From: Patescibacteria group bacterium
GTDB taxonomy: Bacteria; Bacteroidota; Ignavibacteria; Kapaibacteriales; Kapaibacteriaceae
DNA: 64,000 nucleotides
Assembly: GCA_044238605.1 (NCBI GenBank)
Contig: JBIICY010000004.1
Span: 29,395-93,394, forward strand
Reading direction: 5' to 3'
Part shown: piece by piece, positions 25,590 through 44,359 of the stretch
How the letters are laid out: the number at the start of each line of letters is the position of its first letter
Numbering within the stretch: the stretch's first letter is position 1
Notes under the pieces: generated by a model
What the model was told of the DNA's origin: nothing
What the model saw: the letters and a program-made list of their open reading frames with translations, nothing else
The model's database searches: none
Position numbers and translations under genes: made by a program

Positions 25590-26987
25590 TTAGAGAAGCT
25601 TGAGTGCTTCTGGTAGCAATGTGCGTTGTATCTCCTCTCGAAACTCAGTGTACAAGCGCTTCTGGGTTCGAATATCAGTGTGGCGCTCGATGTTCGTTAA
25701 CTGACGGTGCATCTTGAGTATCAGCTTTTTAAGGGGCTCGGCACCAGCGTCATCGCCGCCAGACTTCAATACAACAATCAGACGTTCAAATGCCTGTAGC
25801 GAGTTGAGGACGTCGTCCTGCTGCATCGCACGAATGATATCAACAACCCCGGAGTGAACGATAGATAACCCCCGTTGTTTCCTCCTACGCAGAACGGACT
25901 TAAGGAGCAGTTGATTGCCGGATAGTACGGCTACATAGCCAGCGGACTGAAGAATCACGCGCTGAATGTCTGCACGCTGCTTTCGAAATCGTTCGTGAGT
26001 AACGGCATCCGTAGCGATCTGTGCTGCAAGTTTATAATCTGCGCTGTGGAGCAAACGCCCCATGAGTTGATGCGTAACGAGAAACCAATTGGAACTGCCA
26101 ACACGGCTCAATTGTAGCAGTTTCTTTGTTGCTGCGGCAACTCGTGTGCGTTTTCCAAAAAACTGATGAATGATGATACTTTGAAGAATCCATGAGCTGT
26201 GATGTGAATCATCCCAAATCCCAATTTCTTTACACGCATCAGGGTATGCAGTAAGCCACGTTGTGGCAAGCTCATAATCATGCAGTATCTGGCTCGTTGT
26301 AACTGCCAGTGATAACCCCGCCGTAACAACGATAGGTTCTGTCTCCTTAACATTGATTCGACTCAAGATACTGGCGGCTTCGTTTGCTATTCGGACCTTA
26401 TGCTGCTGCCGCAGATTCTTTTTAACATTAGAGAGTATCAGCTTCCGTAAGACGGTATCAATTGCATTCAGCAGGTCGTGCGTTTTTTGGGCATCCTCAA
26501 GTTCTTCGCTGTAGCGATTGAAGTCGAGGGTGTTCGGCTCACTCGCGGCAATGGTTCTTAGCAGGCGGAGAGCATACAATTTTACATCGTACAAGTCTGG
26601 TAACACGATGTTGCGTATCGCAAGTTGAAGCTTGTGCTTTGCCAGCTGATGTGCCTGACTTCGGTACGCAATTCCAGCCGCGGCAACGAGTGAAAACACT
26701 TTGCGCGTTGAATCAATGCTCTTTCGCGCCGTAGACGATGGTTGAAAGGCTAGGATCATACCATCGAGCTTCTCGAGCAGTCTTGACTTTGCTTTTCGTG
26801 CAGAGTCCTCTCGCATACGAACATCCCGATCGTCAAGAAACTGGGGCCTTTGCCCTTCAATCACCTGCATAATGTAGCGTTGCTCTTCGTAGGTCAATGT
26901 GACTGCCAAGAGGTGCTGTAGATACAGACCATTGCCATAGAGCGACGTCAGGACGTCTGCATATTCCCGAAGCTTTTGATCGATCAT
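25590..26987 (-). CDS. Hypothetical all-alpha protein (cassette A large gene), distant paralog of 39378..40868
   Basis: 465 aa with no known motif. It shares the GSSNWFLxxxLMGRLL ... DYKLAAQI region and a THERFRKQRADIQRV-like stretch with the 39378 product at the same relative position, and has the same divergent arrangement with a small secreted-protein gene. Confidence 0.5.
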   Translation of the reverse strand: MIDQKLREYADVLTSLYGNGLYLQHLLAVTLTYEEQRYIMQVIEGQRPQFLDDRDVRMREDSARKAKSRLLEKLDGMILAFQPSSTARKSIDSTRKVFSLVAAAGIAYRSQAHQLAKHKLQLAIRNIVLPDLYDVKLYALRLLRTIAASEPNTLDFNRYSEELEDAQKTHDLLNAIDTVLRKLILSNVKKNLRQQHKVRIANEAASILSRINVKETEPIVVTAGLSLAVTTSQILHDYELATTWLTAYPDACKEIGIWDDSHHSSWILQSIIIHQFFGKRTRVAAATKKLLQLSRVGSSNWFLVTHQLMGRLLHSADYKLAAQIATDAVTHERFRKQRADIQRVILQSAGYVAVLSGNQLLLKSVLRRRKQRGLSIVHSGVVDIIRAMQQDDVLNSLQAFERLIVVLKSGGDDAGAEPLKKLILKMHRQLTNIERHTDIRTQKRLYTEFREEIQRTLLPEALKLL

Positions 26988-27108
26988 GGATGCCGCACAA
27001 AGTGGTCAATTTGGCCGTCCGAATATCTGCAAAAAGCAGCTTACTTCTGTTCGTTGTAGTTGAGAGTATTGAAACACACAATTGTTTCACTCTATTCAAT
27101 GGACTCTC

Positions 27109-27318
27109 ATGACCGAATTTTTTATCGCTCTGCTCATCTGGATGGGGCTGCTCGATCCAGCAACCAGCTACACGGTAAGTCAGGTAGAACAGATCTCAAC
27201 AACGAATTCATCGGCTATTCAGCAAGCCGCTTCGTCGTTGGATACAACTACCGCATCGTGGCAGAACGCACAGGCGCTCGTAAAAGAAACGCTGATCATC
27301 GATCCACGGGAATTATGA
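27109..27318 (+). CDS. Small secreted / membrane-anchored protein (cassette A small gene), paralog of 40946..41149
   Basis: MTEFFIALLIWMGLLDPATSY ... LIIDPREL is roughly 40% identical over about 60 aa to MELLLAILVWLGLLMPAQQ ... IVIDPLTR. The ATG at 27109 is preferred over the TTG at 27082 used by the ORF track. Confidence 0.45.
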   Translation: MTEFFIALLIWMGLLDPATSYTVSQVEQISTTNSSAIQQAASSLDTTTASWQNAQALVKETLIIDPREL

Positions 27319-28332
27319 CCGCGTCTCGAACCAACGTCCGTCAGAACGTATAATGTCGATCAATGCTTCTACAGCCCCGGCTGACGGAATATTCCGCTGC
27401 ACGATTTCTTGTCCGCGGTAGAGTGTGATGCGGTCCGGACCCGACCCTACATATCCGTAGTCGGCATCGGCCATTTCTCCGGGACCATTGACAATACATC
27501 CCATGATGCCGATCTTCACACCCTTGAGGTGATCGGTCTGGGCGCGAATCATGGATGTGGTCTCCTGCAGGTCAAAGAGCGTACGCCCGCATGATGGACA
27601 GCTGATGTACTCGGCTTTTGTCATGCGGGTGCGTGCGGCCTGAAGTATGCCGTAGGACAGGCGCACAGCGTCTGCCGACATACTATTGTTGCCGATTGAC
27701 ACATTCAGCATTACAGCATCACCATATCCTTCAACGAGCAAGCCCCCTACGTCTGTTGACGCCCAAAGTGATGCCTCATCGAGAGAGGTGGCCGAAATGT
27801 CTCTGTGCAGGATTATCGGGCATGCAATCTCACGCGCTGCCAGTACATCTAGTGTTCTTCGCAAGTCTCTGTAGTAGGACGTTGCGCTGCTTGAGATGCA
27901 TAACACGGCTGTTGTGTCGTGTAAGAGCTTTTCGAGAAGTGCATGATCGTCTGTCTCATCAGGTGAACATGCAACTACGTTCATTACTGTATGGCGTTCT
28001 TCAACGGTCAGATACTCCTGAAGTGTCAAACGCGGAACGCAGTAGAACTTGTCATCCTGCTGCAGCCACGCTGCATGATCAAGGATCTGCCGTGTTCCTG
28101 CAGGTGCCATAAATGGCAATGGGGTAGCCCCCATGAAGAGAAACTCAGCAGGCTGATCGGTCGTGGCCCACTTGTCTGTTGCGGCGTCGTAGATATGACC
28201 AAGGGGCGCTAACTGTTCCTTGTCGCTGATCTTTAGCTGTGACAGATCCGCAATAACGCGGGGCACGTTATCACCGCCAATGATCGCAACGTAGCGCGTT
28301 GCATACCGGTGATAGGCATATGGCGATCTCAT
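27313..28332 (-). CDS. ispG: IspG/GcpE C-terminal portion: insertion (A*) domain plus 4Fe-4S domain
   Basis: CPSCGRT ... [11 protein letters not shown] is the Fe-S cluster ligand region. Its ATG overlaps the stop of the upstream TIM-barrel ORF (ATGA). Confidence 0.8.
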
Positions 28333-29228
28333 GCATACCTCCGCGCGAGCGCTTGCGCAACAGGGATTTCGGCTTCTGGTTCTTCTGTGAGGGATACCCG
28401 AATGGTGTCTCCTAAGCCATCTTCCAAAAGTGTACCAATGCCTAACGCACTCTTTACGCGTCCGTCTTCGCCATCTCCAGCTTCGGTTACACCCAGGTGC
28501 AACGGATATGGCTTGAGGCCTTCTTGCCGGAGACGAGACACAAGAAGCCGGTAGGCATGGATCATCACGAGTGGATTGCTGGACTTCATCGACAGCACGA
28601 TGTTGTAGTAGCCTTCATCTTCGGCAATGCGCAGAAACTCGAGTGCAGACTCCACCATGCCGTCGGGATTATCTCCGTAGCGACTCATGATGCGGTCTGA
28701 CAGCGAACCATGGTTCGTTCCGATGCGCAGGGCTGTTCCGTACTCCTTGCAGATCTTGATCAGTGGCACAAAGCGCGCACGAATGCGGTCGAGCTCTTCC
28801 TGATATTCTGCATCGGTATACTCGATGATGTTGAACTGCTTTTTGTCGACGTAATTCCCTGGATTGATCCGCACCTTTTCAACTACACGGGCTGCAATCT
28901 CGGCGGCATTTGGCGTGTAGTGGATATCTGCTACTAACGGCGTTGTATAGCCCCGTTCGCGCAGACCCGTGCGGATCATTTCAAGGTTCTTAGCTTCTCG
29001 CATGGAAGGGGCGGTAATGCGCACCAGCTCGCATCCGGCGTCGATCATGCGGATAGATTGCTCGATAGTACCTTGCGTATCCATGGTGTTCGTTGTAGTC
29101 ATCGATTGAACACGGATAGGGTAGGCAGAGCCCATGGCGAGGTCGCCAATGGTCGCGGTTACCGTTTCACGACGGTGATAGGTCGTAAGCGACTCGCAAT
29201 ACGGCGGTAGGGTGTCGTGGTGCTGCAC
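28329..29228 (-). CDS. ispG: IspG/GcpE N-terminal TIM-barrel portion (HMBPP synthase)
   Basis: [11 protein letters not shown] ... VRITAPS ... [40 protein letters not shown] is typical of the GcpE barrel. Confidence 0.85.
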
Positions 29229-29230
29229 GG

Positions 29231-30163
29231 TTAGAGCTGACGGCTAACTTCAAAAAGAATGTTTTTTTCACGCTCAGACAATCCGTGGTATCCGCCACGC
29301 GAGATCTTGTCGAGGATTTGATCGATCTGTTCCTGCGATACAGGCTGCCCTTCAACTACAAACTTTGTTGGTGTCTGCGTAGCAGGTTCGCTACGAACCG
29401 GTTCCTGCGTAGGAACGTATTCATAGCGAGGGGGCTGGCGTTCTGAAAGATCTCGAAAATCTGCATCGATCACGTTGGATCCCCGACGGTAGCTGTCTTT
29501 GTACTGCGATCCCTCGATCTTCCGAAAGAGCGGTTCCCCAAACTTGATGAGCAGATAGCCCCCTAACGCACCTCCCAAGTGTGCAAAGTGCGCTACACCA
29601 TCTCCCGCGTTGAAGAGTCCGCTAACAAGATCGAACCCTGCGTAGATCATCACAAAGATCCGTGCCGGGATAGGGAAGAACAGCGGGAACATCATGATCG
29701 GCCTGTCGGGGAAGGTCATCCCGAAGGCAAGAAGAACGCCCATGATCGAGCCCGATGCACCGATCGTTGGGGCAAGGCCTCCGCCAAGCAATGGGGTGAT
29801 CGCAAGGTGCACAATGCCGGCCGCTATGCCGGCCAGGATGTAGTATGCTGCGAACCGACGTGACCCCCAGATGTATTCAAGCTCCACGCCGAACATCCAC
29901 AGGGCGAGCATGTTAAACAGCAGATGCGAAATACCACCATGCATAAACTGATACGACAGTAGCTGCCATGGATAAAACAATCCGCTGCCTGCAGGCCATA
30001 GGGCAAACGTCTCCATCACTACGTTGTCGATTGGCTGTCCACCAAGTGTGAGCCCCTGCAGAAACAGCGACTGAATCACAAAGACGATCACGTTGCTTGC
30101 AAGCAAGAACTTGATCACTGGTGGGAATGCGCCCATGCGGCCTTGGCCAAATTGTGCTGACAT
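29231..30163 (-). CDS. Rhomboid-family intramembrane serine protease with a C-terminal cytoplasmic extension
   Basis: [13 protein letters not shown] (GxSG) and AHLGGALGG (catalytic His) in a 6-7 TM core. Confidence 0.75.
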
Positions 30164-30166
30164 GTC

Positions 30167-32373
<2,207 letters not shown>

Positions 32374-32404
32374 TTATAAAAACGTGGCGCAAAAATACCA
32401 TGCT

Positions 32405-32971
32405 TTACTGTTTCTTGACGCGGCTCGGGTTCTTCTCTACGTAGTCTTTCCAGGCGTTTCGCTTCGAAACTTTTCCACCACGCTTTGCGGCAGGGGGCGG
32501 TCCGCCATTTACGGCATGACATATCGCTACGGCAAGAGCATCAGTAGCATCAAAAAACTCGGGTGTTTCATCGATGGACAAAATCGCCCGCACCATATGC
32601 TGTACTTGATCTTTTGTTGCAGCTCCGCGTCCGGTAACACTTCGCTTTACCTGCATCGGCGTATACTCGACGGGGTCGTGTCCACCCTGCGCGCATGCTA
32701 ACACGGCAACGCCGCGAGCATGGGAGAGCTGAACGATTGAGAGGACATTTTTTGCGTAGAACACTTTCTCAAGAGAGCACACATCGGGGGATGTGCGGGT
32801 GATCACAGCGCTCAAGCGCTCATGGATCTCTCGCAGACGCTCCGGAAACGACGAGCTGCGTCGCTTAACGGCTATCACGCCGTATTCGACAAGCTTCATG
32901 GACGAGCCCTCGGCATCTATTACACCGTATCCACAAACAACAGAGCCTGGGTCGATGCCAAGTATTCTCAT
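32405..32971 (-). CDS. ruvC: Holliday junction resolvase RuvC
   Basis: MRILGIDPGSVVCGYGVID. Confidence 0.85.
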   Translation of the reverse strand: MRILGIDPGSVVCGYGVIDAEGSSMKLVEYGVIAVKRRSSSFPERLREIHERLSAVITRTSPDVCSLEKVFYAKNVLSIVQLSHARGVAVLACAQGGHDPVEYTPMQVKRSVTGRGAATKDQVQHMVRAILSIDETPEFFDATDALAVAICHAVNGGPPPAAKRGGKVSKRNAWKDYVEKNPSRVKKQ

Positions 32972-33705
32972 GCTTCGTCCTCATCGGGCAGGTCGGCGTT
33001 GTGAAAGACGTTCTGCACATCGTCGTTATCGTCGAGCACATCAAGCAGCTTGTCGAGCATCTTTGAGTGGTCCTGTTCCGTAACCTGCACGGTTGTATTT
33101 GGCTCAAACACAATGCGCGTCTCTCGCACATCAAGACCCTTGTTGGAGCATTCATTAGCACACGTGCCCAGCATGTCGACTGCGCAATAGACGAGCGCGC
33201 CCTCATCAATCACTACCACGTCATCAGCGCCGATGTCCATAGCGATCGTCAGGAGGTCTTCTTCTGTGCGCTGAGTTTCGATGCGTATCTCGCCCTTGCG
33301 CGTAAAGTTCCAGCTTACGGAATTGGTTTCTCCAAGGTTGCCGCCAAACTTGGAAAACGTAGCACGCAGTTCTTGTGTAGAGCGGTTGCGGTGGTCTGTT
33401 GTGCAGACAACGATCACGGCAACGCCGCCCGGACCGTAGCCTTCGTATGTGACGTCTTCATAGCTCACACCTTCAAGTTCACCGGTGCCTCGCAGGATTG
33501 CGCGCTTGATGTTCTCTACCGGCATCGACACCGACCGTGCATTTTCTATTGCCATCCGCAGGCGGGCATTTGCGTCGGGGTCGCCCCCTCCGAGCTTGGC
33601 AGCAACGATGATCTCCTTCGAAACCTTCGTAAAGAGTTTCCCGCGCTTTGCGTCGACAACTGCCTTGCGACGCTTAATATTTGCCCATTTACTGTGTCCA
33701 GCCAT
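32968..33705 (-). CDS. yebC: YebC/PmpR-family transcriptional regulator
   Basis: MAGHSKWANIKRRKAVVDAKRGKLFTK. A 4-nt overlap with ruvC. Confidence 0.85.
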   Translation of the reverse strand: MAGHSKWANIKRRKAVVDAKRGKLFTKVSKEIIVAAKLGGGDPDANARLRMAIENARSVSMPVENIKRAILRGTGELEGVSYEDVTYEGYGPGGVAVIVVCTTDHRNRSTQELRATFSKFGGNLGETNSVSWNFTRKGEIRIETQRTEEDLLTIAMDIGADDVVVIDEGALVYCAVDMLGTCANECSNKGLDVRETRIVFEPNTTVQVTEQDHSKMLDKLLDVLDDNDDVQNVFHNADLPDEDEA

Positions 33706-33714
33706 GCTGCAAAG

Positions 33715-36429
33715 CTACAACTGTGGACGGTGTCGGTAGAGTGATGCGATTGCCTTTGCATACACGCTTGATGTAGACAGGATTTGTGCATCGCCGATCA
33801 TGACAAACTGTTCTTTTGCACGAGTCATGGCAACGTTGAGTTTGCGGTCGATGCGAGCCCCATTGTAGTCGATCTCAGATCGAATCTGATCGAACTCCTG
33901 CAGAGTTGATACAGCGGCTATGTAGATGATCACGTCGCGCTCGCTTCCCTGGAAGCGCTCTACAGTATCGACTGTGCAGTGCTGCCGTATATCGAACGGA
34001 AGAGCTTGCAGAATGGCATTATTGATGATGCGGAAGGGGCTAATGATGCCGATGCTCAGATGTTGTCCAGACGGATAGGGCAGAAGTGCGAGGGTTGATG
34101 CAAGCTCTACAGCATAGCGCACTTGCGTAGCTGTATCTATGAGGTCAACATAGCACGCTCGGTGTGGTAGAATGTGCGACCACGGAAGCGGACTGATGTC
34201 TGTCTGATGGTCGTGCAGACACGTAAGCGCGTCCGCGTAAAACGCACGAGCGGGAAAGGTCATCACATCGGTATGCATGCGGCCCTGCTGATGCAGCATT
34301 GCAACATGGTCATTGGTGGTGGCGCAGCGAAGAAGGCGCTCAAAAGCGCTGATGGAGGTAGACGTAAGATGAATCTCCTGCAGCAGAGGATGGTTTGTCG
34401 AAAGACGGTCAAGGGGCTGCACAACTACGGCAGGCAGCTGACAATGATCGCCGATAAGTATGGTACGTCCAGCACGCGCCATTGGAAGCAGCAGCATGGG
34501 CTCTAGGATCTGGGATGCTTCATCGACCACGGCAGTAGTAAAGCTCCCAAACTCCCAGATCTCGGGTGAAGACGTAAGCGACTGAATCGTAGAGACAACG
34601 CACTTCGTCGAATACAGATGCTCTGCTAGAGCCTCTGCCGAGAGCGTGCGTGCCATGTGGGGTATGCTGTGCGATCCGGTTGCCCCTTCAAGACTTCCAT
34701 GACGTACGTATGGAATGTCGTACCTCGCCAGTGCCTCACAGATCTCGTTTGCCGCACGGTTGGTATATGCCAGCACCAGGACGCGTTCATCTGGATCCTG
34801 AGAGAGCTCCTGAACTATAGCGCGAAGCACGGCAGATGTCTTGCCTGTTCCGGGTGGACCCTGGATCAGGAACAGCTCACGGGCACTTAGGGCGCGCCCA
34901 ACGATCGTGCGCTGCGAGTCCGTAAGATTCGGTGCCGTGCACGGCCTTGGAGCATCCATTTGGGGAGTCCTGCGCCCAAGAAGCACTGCTCGTTTGTCAG
35001 GAGGAAGCTCGAGAAAGGCCCTAATCCCAGCATAGTGTGCCTTGGATGCCGTATCCATGGTATCGAGCTCAATGTCCCATGTCCTCTGGGGAAACTCATG
35101 CACGGGAGCAAACTTGTTGCGGAGAGAAAGCACAACCGTTGTGGCGGTGAGTTCTCGAACCGAGGCCTTAAATCGTGTTGAGAGGAGAGGCGTTGCGTCA
35201 TCGGGCTGCCAAAGACGCAAGACAACCGCATCGCCGATGCGAATGGGGGTGTCGGTCACGAGCCCCCTTCGTTGAAACACCAGATGCATATGGGCGGTAT
35301 CAGAGGCCTCGGCATGGTACTCTAGATCGGTCAGCACCGTTCGCGTGCGCAAAGCTCCGATGCGCTGCTCGAGAAGTTCCCCCGAGACAAGGCAGAGCCA
35401 TGCGGCAACAGCGTGTTTTTCGGTAGTGTCGAGACTGATGAGCGCCCGTGAGGTGTCTTCTAGGTCCACATGCTCATAGCTCGATACATCGCTCGTATTG
35501 TTCGGATGAAAGTTGCTAAGCACCCTCAATGGGCTTGTATCTGACCGGGATAGAGCAAGATCAGAGGCTACAATGGCATTCCTCGCGCGCAGAAGGGCAG
35601 CAAAGGCCGCATCGGCGGTCCGCAATGACCTGAGCGGGCGCTCTGCGTCTTGCACATACCACAGCATAGACCGCACCTGCATATGCGGGTGCTGCTCTTG
35701 CACCATCATCTGATAGGCTGCTACCTGCGCCCGATGATCGAGACGGACTCCGGATGTTGGGGCTTTGCCGGCCTTCATTTCGACAATATCTATCCTGTCC
35801 GGACGCCGGAGGACGATGTCGGCCCGTCCCTGCAAACCGTACGACTCAGATACGAAGTATGGTTCAAGTGCCAGGTCTTCGTCGTGCCAGGTTGCCTGAA
35901 CCGCACGCAGCCGGGGGAGCAGTTCGGCAACTTTTGCAAAGACGTTGTTGATCTCCGATGCAGACCGAAGAGACGCTAGTGAGAGTGGACGCAACGTGGA
36001 AAGATGTTGGCTGATCTCGGCATCTGAGATGTTTGGCAGCTTTACGATCACATCAAAGGCCGCATTCACCAGGCTTCCGGTTACTGTGGCATGTAGAACC
36101 TTTGCTGGCTTAAACTTCCTGGCCACGATCTTCACGTCGATTGGACCATCTGCTCCAGCTACACCCGCCGCATCCGTTACATCAACCACATAGTCGGGCT
36201 GTAATATGAGCAAGGGGCTAGCCTGCTCACTGTGGATAACCTTGTGGATAGGGGTGCCCACAAGCCAGGCCGGATGCTGTGAGTGTGACCCGATGACAAG
36301 CCCAAGATCAGCAAACGTGCGCTCTTCGACGAGCCCTGTATCTAGTTGAATTGATATGGACTTGCCGCTGTTATCCACAGAGCAGATTTGACCTGTGTGG
36401 ATAACAGGGCGTGTAGGTTCAGCCGACAT
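33715..36429 (-). CDS. Dna2/Nam7-like SF1 helicase fused to an N-terminal PD-(D/E)xK (Cas4/RecB-like) nuclease
   Basis: Nuclease motif DIVLRRPDRIDIVEMKAGK ... QVAAYQMM. Helicase motifs [53 protein letters not shown]. The start is placed at the internal Met (MSAEPTRPV) to clear the recJ stop. Confidence 0.7.
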   Translation of the reverse strand: MSAEPTRPVIHTGQICSVDNSGKSISIQLDTGLVEERTFADLGLVIGSHSQHPAWLVGTPIHKVIHSEQASPLLILQPDYVVDVTDAAGVAGADGPIDVKIVARKFKPAKVLHATVTGSLVNAAFDVIVKLPNISDAEISQHLSTLRPLSLASLRSASEINNVFAKVAELLPRLRAVQATWHDEDLALEPYFVSESYGLQGRADIVLRRPDRIDIVEMKAGKAPTSGVRLDHRAQVAAYQMMVQEQHPHMQVRSMLWYVQDAERPLRSLRTADAAFAALLRARNAIVASDLALSRSDTSPLRVLSNFHPNNTSDVSSYEHVDLEDTSRALISLDTTEKHAVAAWLCLVSGELLEQRIGALRTRTVLTDLEYHAEASDTAHMHLVFQRRGLVTDTPIRIGDAVVLRLWQPDDATPLLSTRFKASVRELTATTVVLSLRNKFAPVHEFPQRTWDIELDTMDTASKAHYAGIRAFLELPPDKRAVLLGRRTPQMDAPRPCTAPNLTDSQRTIVGRALSARELFLIQGPPGTGKTSAVLRAIVQELSQDPDERVLVLAYTNRAANEICEALARYDIPYVRHGSLEGATGSHSIPHMARTLSAEALAEHLYSTKCVVSTIQSLTSSPEIWEFGSFTTAVVDEASQILEPMLLLPMARAGRTILIGDHCQLPAVVVQPLDRLSTNHPLLQEIHLTSTSISAFERLLRCATTNDHVAMLHQQGRMHTDVMTFPARAFYADALTCLHDHQTDISPLPWSHILPHRACYVDLIDTATQVRYAVELASTLALLPYPSGQHLSIGIISPFRIINNAILQALPFDIRQHCTVDTVERFQGSERDVIIYIAAVSTLQEFDQIRSEIDYNGARIDRKLNVAMTRAKEQFVMIGDAQILSTSSVYAKAIASLYRHRPQL

Positions 36430-36445
36430 GAGGACGTGTGGATAA

Positions 36446-38215
36446 CTACGAAAGTGGACGTAGGTCCTTGAGACGAATCTGCGGAGTAGACGTTCCTTGG
36501 AAGATGTTTTCCTCCAAGGTGTAGACCATGGAGAAGTGTCTGCCGTGGCTGCATTCCGAGATCTTCTTCCCGAGATTGAATCCAATAGCGTCGATAGCAA
36601 AGTTTCGTTGCAAGGCGCGGAACTTCAAATGGTTGTTCCCAACAATTTTAACGCCGTTGGCAGAGGCAACATTGTCTGTGTGGAAAACCGGACGATGGTT
36701 CTGGTAACCGTACGGGGCGAACTTCCCTAAGAACTTTAAAAAGCTTGGAGTTAGTTCGTTCAGCTGTAAATCGGTATCAACCACTATTTCGTGTTCAAGC
36801 ATCTCTGGCGTAATGGCTGAGGATGCCATTGCATCGAATCTGCGCTGTAGTTCGGGGATGTTCTCTACAGGTAGCGACAGCCCAGCTGCGTGGATATGTC
36901 CGCCAAATTCTGTGAGCAGATCCTCACACTGTTTAAGTGCGCCGTGGATGTCGAAATCCTTGACGGATCTAGCAGAACCCTTTGCGATTCCATCGATTGT
37001 GGTAAGCATGATCGATGGCACATTGTAACGTTCTACAAGACGCGAAGCCACGATTCCGATTACACCGGCATGCCAGTTATCGCTATGCAATACCAGCGAC
37101 TTACCACTGCCAGTTGCGAGTTGCTTTTCGGCCTGAATAGCAGCCTCTTCAAAGGTGTGCTCATCGATTGCGCGTCGCTGACGGTTGTCGTGTTCAAGTT
37201 CCTGTGCGATGTGGAAGGCGCGGAGTTCATCCGGCTGGATCATCATCTCAACCGCACGGCGTGGGTCTCCGAGGCGTCCTGCCGCATTAATCCGAGGAGC
37301 TAACCCGAAGATTACACTGGAGTTAGTGAGCTGTCCAAGGTGCAAGCCGGCGCAATCAACAAGCCCCTTAAAGCCCGGACGCGGGTAGGAATTGAGAAGT
37401 TCCAAGCCAAAATGGCTTAACACACGGTTTTCGCCAGTTAAGGGGGCTATATCTGCTGCCGAGGCGATGGCCACAAAGTCGAGGTATTCGAAGGCCAGTT
37501 CGGGATGACCCTGACGTTCACTGAGGGCTTGGAGCAGTTTGAATGCTACACCGCAGGCGGCTAAGTCCTTGTAAGGATAGCTACATCCGGGTTTGATCGG
37601 GTCAAGCAGGGCTAGCGCCTTCGGGATCTCTTCAGCGGCCTGGTGGTGATCGCAGACGATCACATCTATACCCAGTTCGCGTGCATGGTCTACAGCTCTG
37701 GAAGCCGTAACCCCAACGTCTACCGTAACAATAACCTTGGCACCGGCCTGATGGGCGCGGTCTACAGATAGCGGGGTAAAGCCGAACCCCTCTTCGAGTC
37801 GGCTGGGGATATGATAGTCAGCATGAGCACCAATTCTGCGCAAGAAATGCAGAACCATCGCAGTGCTCGATGTGCCGTCCACATCGTAATCACCATGAAT
37901 CCATATCAGTTCTTTATTCTGAATGGACTCCTCTATACGGTCAACAGCTTGATCCATGCCGTCCATGAGCCATGGAGAGTGCAAGTGATCAAGCGACGGT
38001 TCAAAGAACCGCTGAACGTCTTCAACTGTGGATAGCCCCCTGCTCACCAATACGCGTGCGATCGGTGGGGGGACGTGAAGTTGTTGTATTATGGTTTGGA
38101 CAGCATGCTCATCGTGACAATCCCGGGTAATCCACCGGTAGTTCAAAATGTTCCTGTTAATTTGAAAACAAACTGTCCGAAGATACGAACCAACCCATCC
38201 TGTGGCAAAACGCAT
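36446..38215 (-). CDS. recJ: Single-stranded-DNA-specific exonuclease RecJ
   Basis: DHH motifs IWIHGDYDVDGTSS and VDHHQ, with a DHHA1 domain. Confidence 0.85.
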   Translation of the reverse strand: MRFATGWVGSYLRTVCFQINRNILNYRWITRDCHDEHAVQTIIQQLHVPPPIARVLVSRGLSTVEDVQRFFEPSLDHLHSPWLMDGMDQAVDRIEESIQNKELIWIHGDYDVDGTSSTAMVLHFLRRIGAHADYHIPSRLEEGFGFTPLSVDRAHQAGAKVIVTVDVGVTASRAVDHARELGIDVIVCDHHQAAEEIPKALALLDPIKPGCSYPYKDLAACGVAFKLLQALSERQGHPELAFEYLDFVAIASAADIAPLTGENRVLSHFGLELLNSYPRPGFKGLVDCAGLHLGQLTNSSVIFGLAPRINAAGRLGDPRRAVEMMIQPDELRAFHIAQELEHDNRQRRAIDEHTFEEAAIQAEKQLATGSGKSLVLHSDNWHAGVIGIVASRLVERYNVPSIMLTTIDGIAKGSARSVKDFDIHGALKQCEDLLTEFGGHIHAAGLSLPVENIPELQRRFDAMASSAITPEMLEHEIVVDTDLQLNELTPSFLKFLGKFAPYGYQNHRPVFHTDNVASANGVKIVGNNHLKFRALQRNFAIDAIGFNLGKKISECSHGRHFSMVYTLEENIFQGTSTPQIRLKDLRPLS

Positions 38216-39269
38216 ACACGACTACATAGCGGGGCAACCCGACCAAGACGACCACGAACTGGGGTACCGTGCGCGCACACGGGAGCGAGCCAAGCTGCTG
38301 GATAGAACGCGCACGCGGGTAAAGCAGGGCAACATCCCTGAGGGGGCTCTCCAGGGCACCGTGATGCGTCCGCTGGGTCCGCGCTGGATGGTTGCCACAC
38401 CTGGATCCGTGTGGGACTGTGCCGTTTCGGGCATCATCGACGTGCCACACACATCCAGCCTAGTAGCCGTTGGGGACACCGTCTGGATCATGCCCGATCA
38501 GCGGGCATCCGGAGCAGCCTCAATCGTCAAGGTTGAAGAACGCACCACGGTACTCTCGCGCAAAGCTGCCGGACGCGGCAAGAAGGAGCAGGTTTTGGTG
38601 TCCAACGCCGAGCAACTCTGCATCGTTGTGGCAGCAGCCCAGCCAGACTATAAAAAGCGGCTCATCGACCGGTATTTGATCGCTGCTGACAAAGGCGAGC
38701 TTGCGCCGATGATCGTGATCAACAAGATCGACCTCATTCCTGATGAGTATCGCGAGGACTTTGTTGATGACCTTCGGGTGTACTCCGAAGACCTTGGCAT
38801 CCCTGTGCTGTTCACAAGCACCACAACAGGGGAGGGCATCGAAGAACTTGAGCAGCACCTCTTGGCGCACACCTCACTGCTTGCCGGCCCATCAGGCGTT
38901 GGCAAATCCTCCATCATCAACCTGATCAGCAACATCCCTCAAGCAGTTGGGGAGATCTCCCGCAAATACGATAAGGGGCGTCATACCACCACCGCGGCTA
39001 TCGTTATTCCATTGCGCAACGGCGGCATCGCCATCGACACCCCCGGCATCCGCGAATTTGCCCTTTGGGAACTGGGAATAGACGAGCTCCCATTCTACTT
39101 CGAAGAGTTCGCCCCTTTTGCCGAACACTGCAAGTTCAATTCCTGCTCTCACACCCACGAACCCGGCTGCGCCGTAAAGCAAGCTGTGGAAGATGGCTTG
39201 GTGGATGAAGAACGATATGCTTCATACCTGCTGTTGAGCAGCGAGCAGCAAGCAGCGAGCAGCGAGTAG
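38202..39269 (+). CDS. rsgA: Ribosome small-subunit-dependent GTPase RsgA (YjeQ)
   Basis: LAGPSGVGKSSIINLI, DTPGIREF and the zinc knuckle CKFNSCSHTHEPGCAV. The C-terminal tail SSEQQAASSE* is encoded by the heptamer repeat array. The true start may be the downstream Met, because the track start overlaps the recJ start. Confidence 0.8.
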   Translation: MAKRIHDYIAGQPDQDDHELGYRARTRERAKLLDRTRTRVKQGNIPEGALQGTVMRPLGPRWMVATPGSVWDCAVSGIIDVPHTSSLVAVGDTVWIMPDQRASGAASIVKVEERTTVLSRKAAGRGKKEQVLVSNAEQLCIVVAAAQPDYKKRLIDRYLIAADKGELAPMIVINKIDLIPDEYREDFVDDLRVYSEDLGIPVLFTSTTTGEGIEELEQHLLAHTSLLAGPSGVGKSSIINLISNIPQAVGEISRKYDKGRHTTTAAIVIPLRNGGIAIDTPGIREFALWELGIDELPFYFEEFAPFAEHCKFNSCSHTHEPGCAVKQAVEDGLVDEERYASYLLLSSEQQAASSE

Positions 39270-39325
39270 CGAACAGCGAGTAGCGAACAGCGAGTAGCGA
39301 ACAGCGAGTAGCGAACAGCGAGTCC
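39237..39325. repeat. Tandem heptamer array AGCGARY (4 perfect 14-mers AGCGAGTAGCGAAC plus degenerate units)
   Basis: Read directly: agcagcgagcagcaagcagcgagcagcgagtagcgaacagcgagtagcgaac... It overlaps the last codons and the stop of rsgA. Confidence 0.8.
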
Positions 39326-39363
39326 TAGTAATAGATTTCGAATGATAAATGACGAACAACGAG

Positions 39364-39392
39364 TTACTCGCTGCTCGCTACTCGCTGTTCAC
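39364..39392. repeat. Inverted copy (4 units) of the AGCGARY heptamer repeat, forming a long imperfect hairpin with the 39237 array
   Basis: ttactcgctgctcgctactcgctgttcac is the reverse complement of the upstream array. It supplies the NSE-TAG terminus of the 39378 gene. Confidence 0.6.
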
Positions 39393-40868
39393 TAACAGCT
39401 TCCCGAGAATCTCGAATCGGACGATTTCACTGTCTGAAAAAGTGCTGGGCAATTCGCCAAGGCGCTTACGAAATGCGTTTAAGTCTGCTCTTGAAGGAGC
39501 TGTTGCTCGATGCTGATACAGAAATTCTATAAATACACCGAATCGGCTGTTATAGCGCATGTGCTTGCGACGCTGTATGAATCGCCACAGCGTAGTAAGT
39601 GTCTCATCATACTGAAGCTGACGGCACTGAGCAGTTGATTCAATCAACAACCATATATGCGATGCAATGAAGAAGTGCCGAGCAAGCGATCCTGCGCGTA
39701 TTTCTTCTAGCAAATCTCGGATAAACTGGTGAGGTCTGCCGCGACGTGGACCGTCCAGTTGCATAAGGGTCTCTAACGATATGCAGTAGGCTTCGGCAAG
39801 CCTCCGTCCGACCTTCAAATGTGTGTCATGTATAAGAGCATTGGGTGTTGATCGCGTTTCTTGTAAGATGCCAGCAGCAAGCTGTGCTTCCCCCTGCAGT
39901 AGAAGTGCTCTTACAGCAAGATCTGAGCAGAGAAACCAATTCCTTGTGCCTTGTGCAAACAAATCTCTTGCCCGCATAGCATAATCCGCTGCCTTGTATA
40001 AGTTGCAAAGCGCCATATGACAAATTGCTGTCTGCAGGACTGTCTCACGCTTCGGCAGAAGTGATTTGCGCAAGAAAACAATAAGTTCATCGTAGCGCTC
40101 GGTGACTTGCAGGGTTGTGCACGTGATGCGCGCGACAGACTCAACAAACCATGGCATCGAGCATTGGCCAAGTGCAAGATTGCATTCGTTATAGAGCTCG
40201 TTCCATTGTTGTCGCATTCGTTCTGATAGCACACTGCCCGTAAAAATTTGGGCATACAGAACATCATGATTTCCACGCAGTGTGGTTTCAAGATGGAGGG
40301 CATCATTCGTTGCTATGAGTTGAGTATGATATTTATGAGCATTATGTCTTTGACCGTGTAATGCAACATGAAGGAGCAATTGGCGCAGCCCGGCAACGCA
40401 AAAGCCTTGCCAGGCTGCTGGTATTGTCTCGTGATGTCGTAGCCCCTTTCGAAGATGAAATGATGCACCATCACCGATGTTGTGCTGGGACAAGTAAAGT
40501 CCGATGATGAGAGATCTAACAGCCGCGATTTGTTGCACAAGAAGAGGGTCATCAGAAAAACGTGAAGGGTCTAAGAAGAATACAAGATTCTCTAATCGAG
40601 CTATGGTTCTTTGCATCAACCGATTAAAAGCACCTACAGGCTGGATGTTGCCAGAACTGAGAGTCGATAGCCGGAGTCTCGCAGTTGCTGATGTCATTTC
40701 AGGGTCGAGCGCGAGTTTATATAACTGAAACGTCTTCGTTGCGGAGGATAAATTATCCTCATTAAACACCTCAATTGATTTAAATCGCATTTGCTGAATT
40801 GTTACTGCCAGCGCTTGTAAATACGTGAAGTTTGACATAATTATTGATAATAGTGATGTCGTTAACAT
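39378..40868 (-). CDS. Hypothetical all-alpha protein (cassette B large gene), distant paralog of 25590..26987
   Basis: 496 aa. It shares the GTRNWFLxxxLAVRALL ... EAQLAAGI segment with the 25590 product, and has the same divergent partner arrangement. Confidence 0.5.
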   Translation of the reverse strand: MLTTSLLSIIMSNFTYLQALAVTIQQMRFKSIEVFNEDNLSSATKTFQLYKLALDPEMTSATARLRLSTLSSGNIQPVGAFNRLMQRTIARLENLVFFLDPSRFSDDPLLVQQIAAVRSLIIGLYLSQHNIGDGASFHLRKGLRHHETIPAAWQGFCVAGLRQLLLHVALHGQRHNAHKYHTQLIATNDALHLETTLRGNHDVLYAQIFTGSVLSERMRQQWNELYNECNLALGQCSMPWFVESVARITCTTLQVTERYDELIVFLRKSLLPKRETVLQTAICHMALCNLYKAADYAMRARDLFAQGTRNWFLCSDLAVRALLLQGEAQLAAGILQETRSTPNALIHDTHLKVGRRLAEAYCISLETLMQLDGPRRGRPHQFIRDLLEEIRAGSLARHFFIASHIWLLIESTAQCRQLQYDETLTTLWRFIQRRKHMRYNSRFGVFIEFLYQHRATAPSRADLNAFRKRLGELPSTFSDSEIVRFEILGKLLVNSE

Positions 40869-40945
40869 TTGTATTGTGGTAGTGCTGATAATCTACGGCA
40901 TTTCGAGGTTGCTCCATCATTCACACTCACGATGGAACAATCGCA

Positions 40946-41149
40946 ATGGAACTACTTTTGGCAATACTTGTCTGGCTTGGCTTGCTTATGCCAGCGCAAC
41001 AGATAACTTCATCGCAGTACGACGAAATCATCAATACAAATTCACAAGCAATATGTGCTGTCATCGATGACAGCGCCACTGCACAACAGGCTCTATACCA
41101 ATACTCGACGAAGCCAGCAGCCATCGTAATAGACCCTTTAACACGTTGA
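40946..41149 (+). CDS. Small secreted / membrane-anchored protein (cassette B small gene), paralog of 27109..27318
   Basis: MELLLAILVWLGLLMPAQQITSSQYDEIINTNSQAI ... AAIVIDPLTR. A conserved hydrophobic N-terminus and an IDP C-terminus are shared with the cassette A small protein. Confidence 0.45.
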   Translation: MELLLAILVWLGLLMPAQQITSSQYDEIINTNSQAICAVIDDSATAQQALYQYSTKPAAIVIDPLTR

Positions 41150-41177: not shown

Positions 41178-41816
41178 ATGAACATTTACATTCGTCAACA
41201 AAAGTCCGCGACCATATTGTGGCTGTTGTTAACAATCATGTCATTTGTTAGCTTTTCGAATGCCAACGCTCAATGCCCAACATCGTGTCCTCCTACACCC
41301 GACTGTCATGCTGATGCGTGGAACGGCCCAGAACAAACCACCTACATTCTGTGCGTGGGCGGTAGGCCGTGCACCATTACAGTGCAGTACTGCTACAGAA
41401 GGGCATGTGGTGTTTTCAATGATGTGGCTGTTACGTGCATTGCCTTTTCAGATCCAAGCTGCGCCTCAAACTACACCATGGCACAGATTGGTGAGTTCGC
41501 TGCTAACGCAGCTTTCAATCATCGATATCAACAAAATGATACCAACTATACGGGTATTGCCACCTGCCCGAGTTTTACCGTTAGCTGGCGAGTGTATGCG
41601 GCTTCATGTTGGCTCAATCGCGATGGTAACTTGTTACCATGTGCCGGAAGTGGTCAGTGCTTTGCCACGTACAAAGTATGTTTGGACCTGATGCAGTACG
41701 GATGCAATGATGTACCCCAGCAGCGGATTCGATCAACTCGGGCAACAGTGATTGCCTCCGGCAATTGTCCGCAATGGACTCCTGAAGCAACACCCTGTTT
41801 GGAATGGTGTGAATAG
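41178..41816 (+). CDS. Cysteine-rich secreted protein (18 Cys), unknown function
   Basis: Signal peptide MNIYIRQQKSATILWLLLTIMSFVSFSNANAQ followed by a CPTSCPPTPDCHAD ... Cys-rich mature region. Confidence 0.5.
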   Translation: MNIYIRQQKSATILWLLLTIMSFVSFSNANAQCPTSCPPTPDCHADAWNGPEQTTYILCVGGRPCTITVQYCYRRACGVFNDVAVTCIAFSDPSCASNYTMAQIGEFAANAAFNHRYQQNDTNYTGIATCPSFTVSWRVYAASCWLNRDGNLLPCAGSGQCFATYKVCLDLMQYGCNDVPQQRIRSTRATVIASGNCPQWTPEATPCLEWCE

Positions 41817-41818
41817 TT

Positions 41819-44071
41819 ATGAAGCTGGCCCTACATTTACTCATCGCTACCTGCCTACTATTAGGCAGTGCTTCCGCTCAAGACTGGCAGCGTTATCCGG
41901 TGTTCCCGCCGGGGTATGCTCGAGTGTGTGCTACAGAGACACAAGCAAATGGAGAAGTAGTAGCTCTGGATATCTGTGGGCGCATCATCGATGCCAAGAC
42001 GGCGCGAGTAATCTCGTATCCCAATCGAGGCTCCTCGGTTGACAATGCGTTGCGGACGGAGTCTGGCTGGTTGATACGATATCTCGACGGATCGCTTTAC
42101 GTTGGTCAAACGTTAGCCGGCGATTTATCAAAGCGTCATGATAGCGTATTGCAGATCGTTCCAGATCGAAACGCGGGAGCCTATGTTGCCGCATCAAACG
42201 GTGATATCTATGCACTGACAAATGGCATGTTGACGAAGATCGGTTTGTGTTCCAAGGTAAAGACCATTGCTGGTGTGGATCAGAAACGGCTCTTTGCTCT
42301 TGATTCCGCAGGCCAGCTCTTTGATATGAGATTCCAGCAAGTTGGCTCTGAATGGAAGCTGCAGAAACTGCAATCATGCAATTCATACAGGGATATCAGC
42401 AAGTTTGTCTGTGTGATGATGAACGATTCATTGCTGGTTCGTAAAACGAATGATGCCTATAGCATCTACACCATGAGTAATGATTCACTCCATGCTGAAT
42501 TCAACATGCGCTCCATACCTGGGTTTGAACCTATCACCACCCTGAAACACGTAGGTGCTGTTGGTGCTATTGCCAGTAATACCGGTGTTGTGCTGTTCGA
42601 GATGGGAACGCGATTTGACGAGTGTCAGATCTATCCTGTAGCCTGTGCAGCATTGAGATTTAGCAGCAGAACATGGACGTTATATGCACGCGACCAGCTT
42701 GTTGATGGTCGTCTGACGTCGGCCGAGATTATCGCTGATACGCTCGTATACGGGACAACAAACGGGAGCATCACCCGCGTTGATCCGGCAGGCTACCGAA
42801 CGCTGGTTCGCAGACCAATGCGTGGCGACCTTGTTCGTTGGCTTGGATCGGTTCGTAATGGCAGCACGGTTGTATTCTATACCGAAACGGTAACCTGCGA
42901 TTCAAACAATCCAGCTGGGATACTGTTTGCGGTCTGGGACGCAAAAAATCGTGAGTGGGGGCGCGTTTTCGATGTAGTTGCTTCGCCCACGTGGCCGTAT
43001 AGTGATGGAAATGGCTTGCCGGGCTGTGATGTATCAAAAGCCAACAATAGAATTGTGTTTTCGCGGCTCAATGCGATCATGATTGTCGATTTGTCTACCG
43101 GCACCATCCTTCGTGAGACGCGGCTACCTGAGGCAGTAGTCAGTTTGCGATATCTTCAAAATCACTCGATCTTGGTGTCAGGTAGTACTCAGCGTTTTGT
43201 CGTTGATACCTTGTTAGTCGTTCGAGATCAAACAGTGTACACTGATTGTTCAATGCGGTATGTTGTCGGTTCGTCCATAGATCTCGACGGCAATTGTCTT
43301 CTCAATGTTGGCGCCAGCAACTATGCAGTTTATCACGCGGCATCTGGGAATTTGTCACGAATCATGAACGATTTGGGCTATTCTTCCGTGGAATGCGCAT
43401 TTCTCGGAAACCGGCCTGAGTTTCTGGTTGTTGGAGAACGTGACGGTAGAATAGAAGTACGAATGTTGAGTCGAAATGATGTGAATCTTGTGGGTTCGTT
43501 TTCCGCTGGCAACCCATCTCCAAATGTGACAGCACAAAGCGGAAAGCTGTCGGATGGTCCGGACTATGTTCGCCCATTTTGGGCGGCGCCCTCGTTTGTT
43601 ATCGTCCGTGGAAAGGAGCGCGACGTGCGTTATGTGCCTCCACCAAGGGGCTGGTTCCCACCAACGCCTACCCGAGACCGGTGGACGAACAGTGGTCTGC
43701 AACACCAGCTCGATGACAGCACGTATATGACCATCTTTTCACAGTCAGAGATGTGGGTTTACACGCTCCGTACGCAGGGAACGAGTGTTGCAGGTGAATC
43801 GCAATCACGTCAGCTCAGTGTCTATCCTAACCCGGCACATGACGTGGTCACGGTTTCGATAGATGCTACAATCACAGCCGGTGGCATGCCTTCAATGCTT
43901 CGACTGATCAATTCTCATGGTAGCATCATTGCACAACAAGAACTGCTCACGGATGGATCTACGTCGTTTCACACGCACAGTTTCTCACTTGCTTCGTTGC
44001 CCTCCGGCGTCTACTTCGTCGAGGTCATTGGATCTTCTACAACAACCATCCCCATTTCTGTGGTACGGTGA
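41819..44071 (+). CDS. Large secreted protein (probable beta-propeller/beta-rich) with a T9SS C-terminal sorting domain
   Basis: Signal peptide MKLALHLLIATCLLLGSASAQ. The C-terminus LSVYPNPAHDVVTVSID ... LPSGVYFVEVIGSSTTTIPISVVR is a classical T9SS CTD. Confidence 0.6.
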   Translation: MKLALHLLIATCLLLGSASAQDWQRYPVFPPGYARVCATETQANGEVVALDICGRIIDAKTARVISYPNRGSSVDNALRTESGWLIRYLDGSLYVGQTLAGDLSKRHDSVLQIVPDRNAGAYVAASNGDIYALTNGMLTKIGLCSKVKTIAGVDQKRLFALDSAGQLFDMRFQQVGSEWKLQKLQSCNSYRDISKFVCVMMNDSLLVRKTNDAYSIYTMSNDSLHAEFNMRSIPGFEPITTLKHVGAVGAIASNTGVVLFEMGTRFDECQIYPVACAALRFSSRTWTLYARDQLVDGRLTSAEIIADTLVYGTTNGSITRVDPAGYRTLVRRPMRGDLVRWLGSVRNGSTVVFYTETVTCDSNNPAGILFAVWDAKNREWGRVFDVVASPTWPYSDGNGLPGCDVSKANNRIVFSRLNAIMIVDLSTGTILRETRLPEAVVSLRYLQNHSILVSGSTQRFVVDTLLVVRDQTVYTDCSMRYVVGSSIDLDGNCLLNVGASNYAVYHAASGNLSRIMNDLGYSSVECAFLGNRPEFLVVGERDGRIEVRMLSRNDVNLVGSFSAGNPSPNVTAQSGKLSDGPDYVRPFWAAPSFVIVRGKERDVRYVPPPRGWFPPTPTRDRWTNSGLQHQLDDSTYMTIFSQSEMWVYTLRTQGTSVAGESQSRQLSVYPNPAHDVVTVSIDATITAGGMPSMLRLINSHGSIIAQQELLTDGSTSFHTHSFSLASLPSGVYFVEVIGSSTTTIPISVVR

Positions 44072-44165: not shown

Positions 44166-44252
44166 GGAGAGGTGCGAGAGTGGTTGAATCGGACGGTCTC
44201 GAAAACCGTTATAGGAGCAATCCTATCGAGGGTTCGAATCCCTCCCTCTCCG
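44166..44252 (+). tRNA. tRNA-Ser (anticodon CGA), type II with a long variable arm
   Basis: Acceptor GGAGAGG/CCTCTCC, anticodon stem ACGGT/ACCGT with loop CTCGAAA, variable arm TATAGGAGCAATCCTATC, T-arm GAGGGTTCGAATCCCTC, discriminator G. Confidence 0.8.
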
Positions 44253-44275
44253 CAGGCTGGTGAGCGTTGAAGATT

Positions 44276-44359
44276 GGGCGAGTGCTGAAATTGGCAGACA
44301 GGCGGGTCTCAGAAGCCCGTGTTCGCAAGAACGTGTGGGTTCAAGTCCCACTTCGCCCA
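44276..44359 (+). tRNA. tRNA-Leu (anticodon CAG), type II
   Basis: Acceptor GGGCGAG/TTCGCCC, D-arm TGCTGAAATTGGCAGACAG (as in E. coli tRNA-Leu), anticodon stem CGGGT/GCCCG with loop CTCAGAA, variable arm TGTTCGCAAGAACGT, T-arm GTGGGTTCAAGTCCCAC, discriminator A. Confidence 0.8.

Follow-up and report, generated by a model that had tools for sequence, protein, structure and literature searches.

The 64,000-nucleotide stretch of contig JBIICY010000004.1 analysed here (the window) contains two cassettes in which a gene for a large protein (L) is transcribed divergently from a gene for a small protein (S). We refer to the L1/S1 cassette as type 1 and to the L2/S2 cassette as type 2 (Table 1). Comparison with related loci indicates that the L-S pair is a co-inherited and co-diverging core, which persists while the genes around it change. 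As to its function we tentatively favour, as a possibility short of a probable one, a cytoplasmic tetratricopeptide repeat (TPR) receptor or regulator with a cognate small exported protein, the two acting at their shared divergent promoter by a logic like that of the RRNPP-type peptide-signalling pairs.

Conservation of the divergent pair and of its small protein

At each S-bearing locus L and S are neighbours, divergently transcribed and 107-126 bp apart. Besides the two copies in the window, a hidden Markov model (HMM) built from S1 and S2 locates an S directly upstream of L, in divergent orientation, in most of the related metagenome or metagenome-assembled genome (MAG) loci, namely those labelled L007/8, L009/10, L015/16, L017, L021-L024, L026 and L030. 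The divergent layout that an earlier reading made from the letters of the window alone (the sequence-only reading) had described is thereby confirmed for both cassettes, with the gaps given in Table 1. The flanking genes vary while the pair stays, as in L007, where it is flanked by a P-type ATPase gene, and in L021-L024, where the contexts are different again; and S remains 43-84% identical where the cargo proteins of distant cassettes fail to align. The pairwise identities of L and S are correlated (Spearman 0.79), and between the two types S is 34% identical as against 15% for L, making S the more conserved of the two.

Genomes of this lineage carry at least two diverged L-S copies, and some relatives carry three. 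On one scaffold of a relative, which represents a related genus, both cassettes and the intervening 12 kb are syntenic with the window, and the L proteins of that scaffold are 41-50% identical to those of the window. Because both types are syntenic there at this level of identity, the duplication predates the split from that relative. The S and L sequences each split into types 1 and 2, in agreement with the earlier proposal that the cassettes are ancient paralogues duplicated as units.

There are also loci in which L occurs without S. In L018 and L019, which carry L2 homologues at 60% identity, both S and the gene for a cysteine-rich protein are absent; because L019 keeps a 42-residue N-terminus of the cargo protein, the loss of S from these two loci is best explained by deletion. 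In L020 there is no S and L borders directly on the cargo gene, and in L031 a relative of L (P0026; P00xx labels denote remote L relatives) is divergent from a 746-aa protein resembling cargo of the type IX secretion system (T9SS), again with no S. Furthermore, no S lies beside any of the remote L relatives whose loci were examined, which belong to a family of at least 422 clusters. Routine occurrence of the large gene without its small partner, which the sequence-only reading had regarded as telling against a genuine pair, is thus found in part, in L018-L020 and in these remote relatives. At the deletions themselves (L019 5900..6340, L018 1..620) S, the cysteine-rich gene and most of the cargo gene are missing beside the L2 homologue, and these MAGs retain the remnant of the cargo N-terminus (QRYPVFPPGYARVCATET...) together with a 692-aa open reading frame (ORF) that is unrelated.

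These S-less loci would be expected if the two genes were merely adjacent, with S the first gene of a secreted or envelope protein operon, reduced to an orphan remnant in cassette 1, with L a TPR protein in its own right that may be a regulator or scaffold, and with the duplicated block simply inherited. All S loci come from one narrow lineage, so that their synteny could be inherited, and the housekeeping flanks are syntenic as well. Against this, the pair survives among differing flanks, has outlasted a duplication old enough for the low L identity given above, and keeps its intergenic length within each type (107-114 bp in type 2 and 121-126 bp in type 1); moreover, no S was seen away from L among the loci examined, and a metagenome scan with the S profile gave L-adjacent copies only. 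We consider mere adjacency unlikely.

S1 and S2 align over their full length with 27/65 identical residues (42%, BLASTP E 2e-11), which bears out the end-to-end match of about 40% claimed for the small ORFs as well as their coordinates. Every type-2 S has 67 residues and every type-1 S 69, and in a ten-sequence alignment the invariant positions (M1, E2, W10, P16, N32, Q48 and I62-D63-P64) are spread over the whole length, with L8, G12, T21, Q24, I36 and S46 near-invariant. The exact S1 sequence was found in 164 blocks of the metagenome collection. Because it is chiefly third codon positions that differ among orthologues (762/496/1215 substitutions at positions 1/2/3 in type 2 and 71/45/135 in type 1), the S genes are judged to be translated and under strong purifying selection. 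With more than 12 independent loci, a fixed length and a coding pattern in which position 3 exceeds position 1 and position 1 exceeds position 2, the view that these tiny ORFs are real genes stands, and S is by these measures a new, lineage-specific family of small proteins of 67-69 residues, validated as genes. That they are instead chance ORFs within conserved non-coding control regions is almost certainly wrong: the lack of database homologues outside the lineage and of any protein-level data would suit this explanation, whereas the third-position excess runs counter to it, as do the conservation of start, stop and a length of 67 or 69 codons at identities down to 28%, and the calling of the ORFs as genes in every metagenome examined.

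A word-indexed homology search with S2 returned only S2 itself, with no database homologues beyond the lineage; a DNA-pattern scan of metagenomes with the S alignment gave just 2 loci, both L-adjacent, and a PDB sequence-profile search with S gave nothing meaningful. As far as these searches reach, S is restricted to a narrow Kapabacteria/Ignavibacteria lineage.

The significance of the S1/S2 pairwise match rests on the N-terminal 16 residues, and with this head removed BLASTP gives no alignment. When the type-2 head is used as a profile, the full-length type-1 heads are recovered with E 0.001-1.2. Because the same profile finds no other hydrophobic segment better than E 15 among about 10,000 ORFs, many of which have true signal peptides, the head appears to be specific and not a generic hydrophobic segment. 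The tail profiles of each type also retrieve the other type, in register, as their only sub-threshold matches (E 0.019-0.87). The suspicion that the likeness of the small ORFs might be that of a low-complexity hydrophobic segment only is therefore justified in so far as the head carries the pairwise significance, and mistaken in that the head is sequence-specific and the tails match below threshold. A likeness at the DNA level between the S starts (caatggac and caatggaac), to which the sequence-only reading had drawn attention, did not survive closer inspection: the S2 copy contains the start codon and the S1 copy lies 10 nt upstream of it and out of frame, and we regard the two as non-homologous, out of register and coincidental.

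The hydrophobic run of S comprises 12-13 residues (9 in one sequence), the net charge of the protein is -3 to -6, and it has 1-3 basic residues. In 7 of 8 type-2 S proteins the head is followed by P-[AGE]/Q-Q, where the slash denotes the putative cleavage site. This junction resembles the A/Q signal-peptidase sites seen in every neighbouring secreted protein that we inspected, and it fits the Bacteroidetes Q-rule, a rule that is not valid across the whole FCB group (PMC5837995). It is plausible that S is secreted or membrane-anchored.

The large proteins and their relatives

L1 and L2 are about 15% identical, and BLASTP aligns them with E 0.002 over 58 residues around an NWF motif; the alignments of the L1 orthologues and of the L2 orthologues match each other in hhalign along 265 collinear columns (E 2.6e-4). 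When 90 remote relatives of about 500 residues are combined in a profile (A5), hmmsearch recovers both proteins of the window, L2 with E 1.1e-30 (profile positions 3-496) and L1 with E 5.8e-29 (62-356), and the hhalign matches of A5 span 479 columns for the L2 family (E 3.3e-35) and 341 columns for the L1 family (E 2.2e-21). Because this third family matches both, L1 and L2 are, by profile comparison, homologous and distant members of one Bacteroidota family of about 500-aa proteins. The 90 sequences of A5 were drawn from the 422 proteins, among 1.84 billion cluster representatives scanned in full with HMMER, that a merged alignment matched at E <= 1e-3. Most of these 422 are about 500 aa long and match end-to-end; the family thus comprises at least 422 clusters at 50% identity. 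Two motifs are collinear across it, LKSRL..RL.NTLFF (R..RLENL in L2 and SRLLEKLD in L1) and GS.NWF. The G-[ST]-x-NWF...LAA segment that had been noticed as common to the two large proteins is accordingly real, with the homology made firm by the third family and not by the weak pairwise match.

The true start of L2 is probably at 40838 (486 aa, MSNFTYLQ...), because all homologues and the metagenome gene calls start there; the position 40868 given earlier is probably too far out. Metagenome gene callers additionally place in L001-L006 a 45-46-aa minus-strand ORF, corresponding to window 40780..40920, which spans the L2-S2 intergenic region and the 5' end of L2. It is probably spurious, since gene callers do not report it in L007 and L009, which are more distant.

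AlphaFold models of L1 and L2 show all-alpha, TPR-like alpha-solenoids (predicted local distance difference test score 83.8 each), as the all-alpha character ascribed to them from sequence had suggested, with an N-terminal helical domain of about 95 aa modelled at lower confidence. Neither protein has an N-terminal hydrophobic segment, and L is predicted to be a cytoplasmic TPR-like alpha-solenoid. L1, L2, S1 and S2 had no match in Pfam, NCBIfam or PADLOC, which agrees with the earlier statement that none of the four has a nameable motif; when the 90 remote relatives and the two downstream genes were scanned as well, no family was obtained for the L relatives, only sub-threshold TPR traces (TPR_1/2/8 at residues ~270-300).

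An N-terminal helix-turn-helix (HTH) was considered for the segment ..AA..LYG....Y..LKSRL..RL, which resembles sigma region 4 and LuxR; the Pfam search of the consensus N-termini was negative and hhalign gave no alignment of the L N-termini to an uncurated reference set of sigma region 4 and LuxR HTH domains, and the candidate was rejected as unsupported. This bears on the suggestion of the sequence-only reading that the two genes may form an anti-sigma-like pair. In such a sigma/anti-sigma-like arrangement a membrane-anchored S would keep L, the transcription factor, inactive. In favour of it are the small hydrophobic-headed protein beside a cytoplasmic protein and the divergent promoter region between them. 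However, neither sigma-70 region 2 or 4 nor another DNA-binding domain was detected in L with Pfam, NCBIfam or hhalign, the 12-13-residue run of S is too short for a standard transmembrane helix, and no cytoplasmic anti-sigma domain lies N-terminal to that run. We find the suggestion unsupported and very improbable.

Several loci of remote relatives have features of their own. In an 8.9-Mb Bacteroidota genome (L028 1384..6530) there are three tandem L paralogues of about 508 aa and a truncated fourth, with repeated spacers of about 270 bp, adjoining an IS21 IstB gene and a gene for an HmuY-like T9SS protein. At L027 a 59-aa ORF is divergent from the relative of L, and genes for an Opp-like transporter lie downstream. 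At L034 313..432, on the minus strand, a 39-aa ORF (MTTLIALLLALGFIFSPDEATPEVLEQYEWVIHEDLEVN, start MTTLIALLLALGFIFSPDE...) is divergent from P0044 and has an S-like design, namely a hydrophobic head, a G, then a P and an acidic tail. Among the S-like small ORFs beside the remote relatives examined none is a significant match to S; that of L034 has E 25.

Operon architecture, control regions and genomic setting

In type 2, S is followed by a cysteine-rich secreted protein of 212-232 aa and then by a secreted protein of 750-850 aa, a layout repeated in L007, L009, L021-L024 and L026. The 212-aa protein of the window has a signal peptide (...NANA/QCP) and many cysteines, and positional analogues of 220-232 aa lie behind S in L021, L023, L024 and L026. 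These cysteine-rich proteins have about 20 cysteines and no Pfam match and are always found behind S in type-2 cassettes. BLASTP gave no alignment among the cysteine-rich analogues, or among the large secreted proteins, of distant cassettes, and the former may constitute a fast-evolving disulfide-rich family of their own. The 750-aa protein shows PF18962 Por_Secre_tail (E 4.8e-8, above the cut-off), a TIGR04183 match and a signal peptide (...SASA/QDW); with both a sorting domain and an N-terminal signal peptide it is, by these predicted features, a T9SS cargo protein. Its gene is conserved in L007, L009 and L020. In type 1, S stands alone and converges on ispG. The earlier idea that the pair as such is a functional module holds for its conserved L-S core; the unit at 39.4-44.1 kb is larger, comprising L2, S2, the cysteine-rich protein and the T9SS cargo, and the module is not obligatory. 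Two tRNA genes (window 44166..44359, plus strand) directly follow the cargo gene, and because the same pair is present in L019 they appear to mark a conserved right-hand boundary of the cassette.

Table 1. Genes and intergenic regions of the two L-S cassettes (window positions; the slash in S2 marks the putative cleavage site)
Feature	Position	Strand	Description
L1	25590..26987	-	465-aa predicted cytoplasmic all-alpha TPR-like protein, type-1 cassette
Intergenic region, cassette 1	26988..27108		121 bp, divergent
S1	27109..27318	+	69 aa; hydrophobic head MTEFFIALLIWMGLLDP, acidic tail, IIDP near C-terminus; gene called in metagenomes
L2	39378..40838	-	486-aa predicted cytoplasmic TPR-like protein, type-2 cassette; ORF open to 40868
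Intergenic region, cassette 2	40839..40945		107 bp, divergent
S2	40946..41149	+	67 aa; MELLLAILVWLGLLMPA/QQITSSQ...IVIDPLTR
Cys-rich secreted protein	41178..41816	+	212 aa; second gene of S2 operon, 28-bp gap after S2
T9SS secreted protein	41819..44071	+	750 aa; C-terminal sorting domain; third gene of S2 operon

The intergenic region of cassette 1 contains a palindrome, TGAAACA-CACAAT-TGTTTCA (27070..27089), with perfect 7-bp arms and a distance of 19 nt from its last base to the start codon of S1 downstream. L015 has it in perfect form and L030 with 6 of 7, and the changes in L017 would retain G-U pairs in RNA; the RNA fold z-score at this position is -2.6 in the window but weak in two relatives, and the value for L017 is about 0. 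The element could be an operator or a hairpin in the 5' untranslated region. Scans of both intergenic regions for sigma-70 promoter and terminator consensus sequences gave nothing informative.

The window has a GC content of about 0.52, is chromosomal and of the Bacteroidota group, and bears T9SS cargo genes along with ordinary housekeeping genes. Many metagenome assemblies contain contigs identical or nearly identical to it, and the MAG contigs bearing L homologues are named Ignavibacteria bacterium, uncultured Melioribacter sp. and Candidatus Kapaibacterium sp. Because only housekeeping genes separate the two cassettes (a split ispG/gcpE, a rhomboid gene, pgk, gap, ruvC, yebC, a PD-(D/E)XK-AAA_11/12 helicase gene, recJ and rsgA), the region is not a mobile island. 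The rhomboid protease gene (29231..30163) was considered as a partner and set aside, as it belongs to the conserved housekeeping synteny and has no tie to S. The ispG/gcpE gene occupies 27313..29228 on the minus strand in two parts, 28329..29228 (299 aa, GcpE TIM-barrel) and 27313..28332 (339 aa, GcpE_C), which meet at an ATGA start/stop overlap. As the related contigs L011-L017 and L030 were all called likewise, the split reflects two true genes and no frameshift error.

Possible functions and comparison with known systems

In the receptor/partner model that we tentatively prefer, S would be exported, or at least targeted to the membrane, by its N-terminal segment, and L would be its intracellular partner, binding S or a fragment of it in the TPR groove. 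This binding would set expression from the divergent promoter region, which would drive S and, in type 2, the genes for the cysteine-rich secreted protein and the T9SS cargo as well. The co-occurrence and co-divergence of L and S despite changing flanks speak for the model, as does the presence of three of five generic features of the RRNPP signature (a small peptide, a receptor of 250-500 aa and adjacency). The strong purifying selection on S and the likeness of its type-2 junction to the A/Q sites of the neighbouring secreted proteins count in its favour too. The persistence of L and S beside downstream genes that change from one distant cassette to another is what a control module of varying cargo would be expected to show; and because relatives of L sit divergently from T9SS-type cargo genes even where S is absent (L020, L031), L seems to be tied to the neighbouring secreted-protein operon.

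Several observations weigh against such a model. The head of S, its most conserved part, starts with M-E, has a hydrophobic run of only 12-13 residues (9 in one sequence) and no basic n-region, in all of which it is unlike ordinary signal peptides, and in type-1 S proteins the putative cleavage site is not followed by Q. No operon lies downstream of S1, and the three close L2 homologues of L018, L019 and L020 have no S. No DNA-binding domain was found in L by Pfam, either in the consensus N-termini or in the 90 relatives; Foldseek searches of L against the PDB gave no match at E <= 0.001, returning generic solenoids only, and a PDB sequence-profile search with L found nothing. A diderm cell would require the peptide to be exported across two membranes and re-imported through them, and the cassettes have no linked transporter for peptides.

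Alternatively, L could be a dedicated cytosolic TPR chaperone or adaptor, holding the conserved hydrophobic N-terminal helix of S, and perhaps of other clients, prior to membrane insertion or export and having no transcriptional role, with S a small envelope protein that would aid the folding or secretion of its cysteine-rich and T9SS neighbours. In favour of this, no part of S is as conserved or as sequence-specific as the head (E2, W10, G12, P16), S is more conserved than L, and a DNA-binding domain was not found in L. Yet regulator-target pairs more typically show such a divergent layout around a short intergenic region whose length is fixed, S1 has no adjoining genes for secreted proteins, and members of the L family without S are common. 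We judge this explanation somewhat unlikely.

Should L and S prove to be receptor and ligand, or regulator and partner, they would offer a first functional handle on a large Bacteroidota family that the databases leave unannotated, and they would point to signalling by small proteins, or to control by them of T9SS-secreted proteins. For this phylum the sources consulted describe no such systems. The boldest form of this proposal, that the L-S cassettes represent the first signalling by a peptide or small protein through a cytoplasmic receptor, with a logic like that of RRNPP, in a diderm Bacteroidota lineage, controlling T9SS-secreted proteins, and that the ~500-aa family of at least 422 clusters is a large unrecognised class of TPR sensor-regulators, seems to us decidedly doubtful. 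Regardless of mechanism, the cassettes reveal a new 67-69-aa family more conserved than its large partner, and the two or three diverged cassettes per genome provide a natural experiment on specificity.

Among the known TPR proteins, the MalT domain III and STAND-type sensor regulators share with L a likeness of generic repeats only, as L has neither an NTPase domain nor a C-terminal LuxR HTH. The TPR chaperones and adaptors (YfgM-PpiD, class II type III secretion system chaperones, SRP72, Sec72) are much smaller than L or parts of larger machines, and no homology to L was detected in them. The ~500-aa Bacteroidota family, to which L1 and L2 belong by profile and with which they share the collinear LKSRL and GS.NWF motifs, is itself unannotated; the only named example that we found is WP_089685953.1 of Catalinimonas alkaloidigena ('hypothetical' or 'TPR-containing'), and the remote members examined differ from L1 and L2 in having no S-family neighbour.

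The RRNPP or RRNPPA peptide quorum-sensing pairs of Bacillota include Rap-Phr, NprR-NprX, PlcR-PapR, Rgg-SHP, PrgX and AimR-AimP. Apart from generic repeats, L has nothing homologous to Rap, NprR, PlcR, Rgg or AimR, and its likeness in fold to such receptors is likewise generic. NprR, PlcR, Rgg and AimR have an N-terminal HTH, and Rap has a 3-helix bundle that binds response regulators; in the helical N-terminal domain of L, modelled at lower confidence, no HTH was detected by Pfam or by hhalign against the uncurated set. The host of the L-S pair belongs to a diderm Bacteroidota lineage and not to the Bacillota, no linked Opp transporter was found at the L-S cassettes, and conservation extends to the whole of S, the head above all, instead of being limited to a short mature peptide. 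The RRNPP signature consists of a propeptide of 10-100 aa with a Sec/SPI or PptAB-type signal and an intracellular receptor of 250-500 aa recognised by TPR HMMs, encoded by directly neighbouring genes (PMC10075063). L1 and L2 give no Pfam family, so that their TPR likeness is one of fold and not of HMM match. As to an export signal, the short hydrophobic run of S is followed by a proline and in type 2 by [AGE]/QQ, but the head has no basic n-region and is unusually conserved, and type 1 lacks the Q. In three respects the two agree: S, at 67-69 aa, is within the range of the propeptides, L1 and L2, at 465 and 486 aa and predicted to be intracellular, are within that of the receptors, and the L and S genes are direct neighbours. 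The L-S module lies outside any described family, and its closest analogy is with the receptor/propeptide pairs of the RRNPP type.

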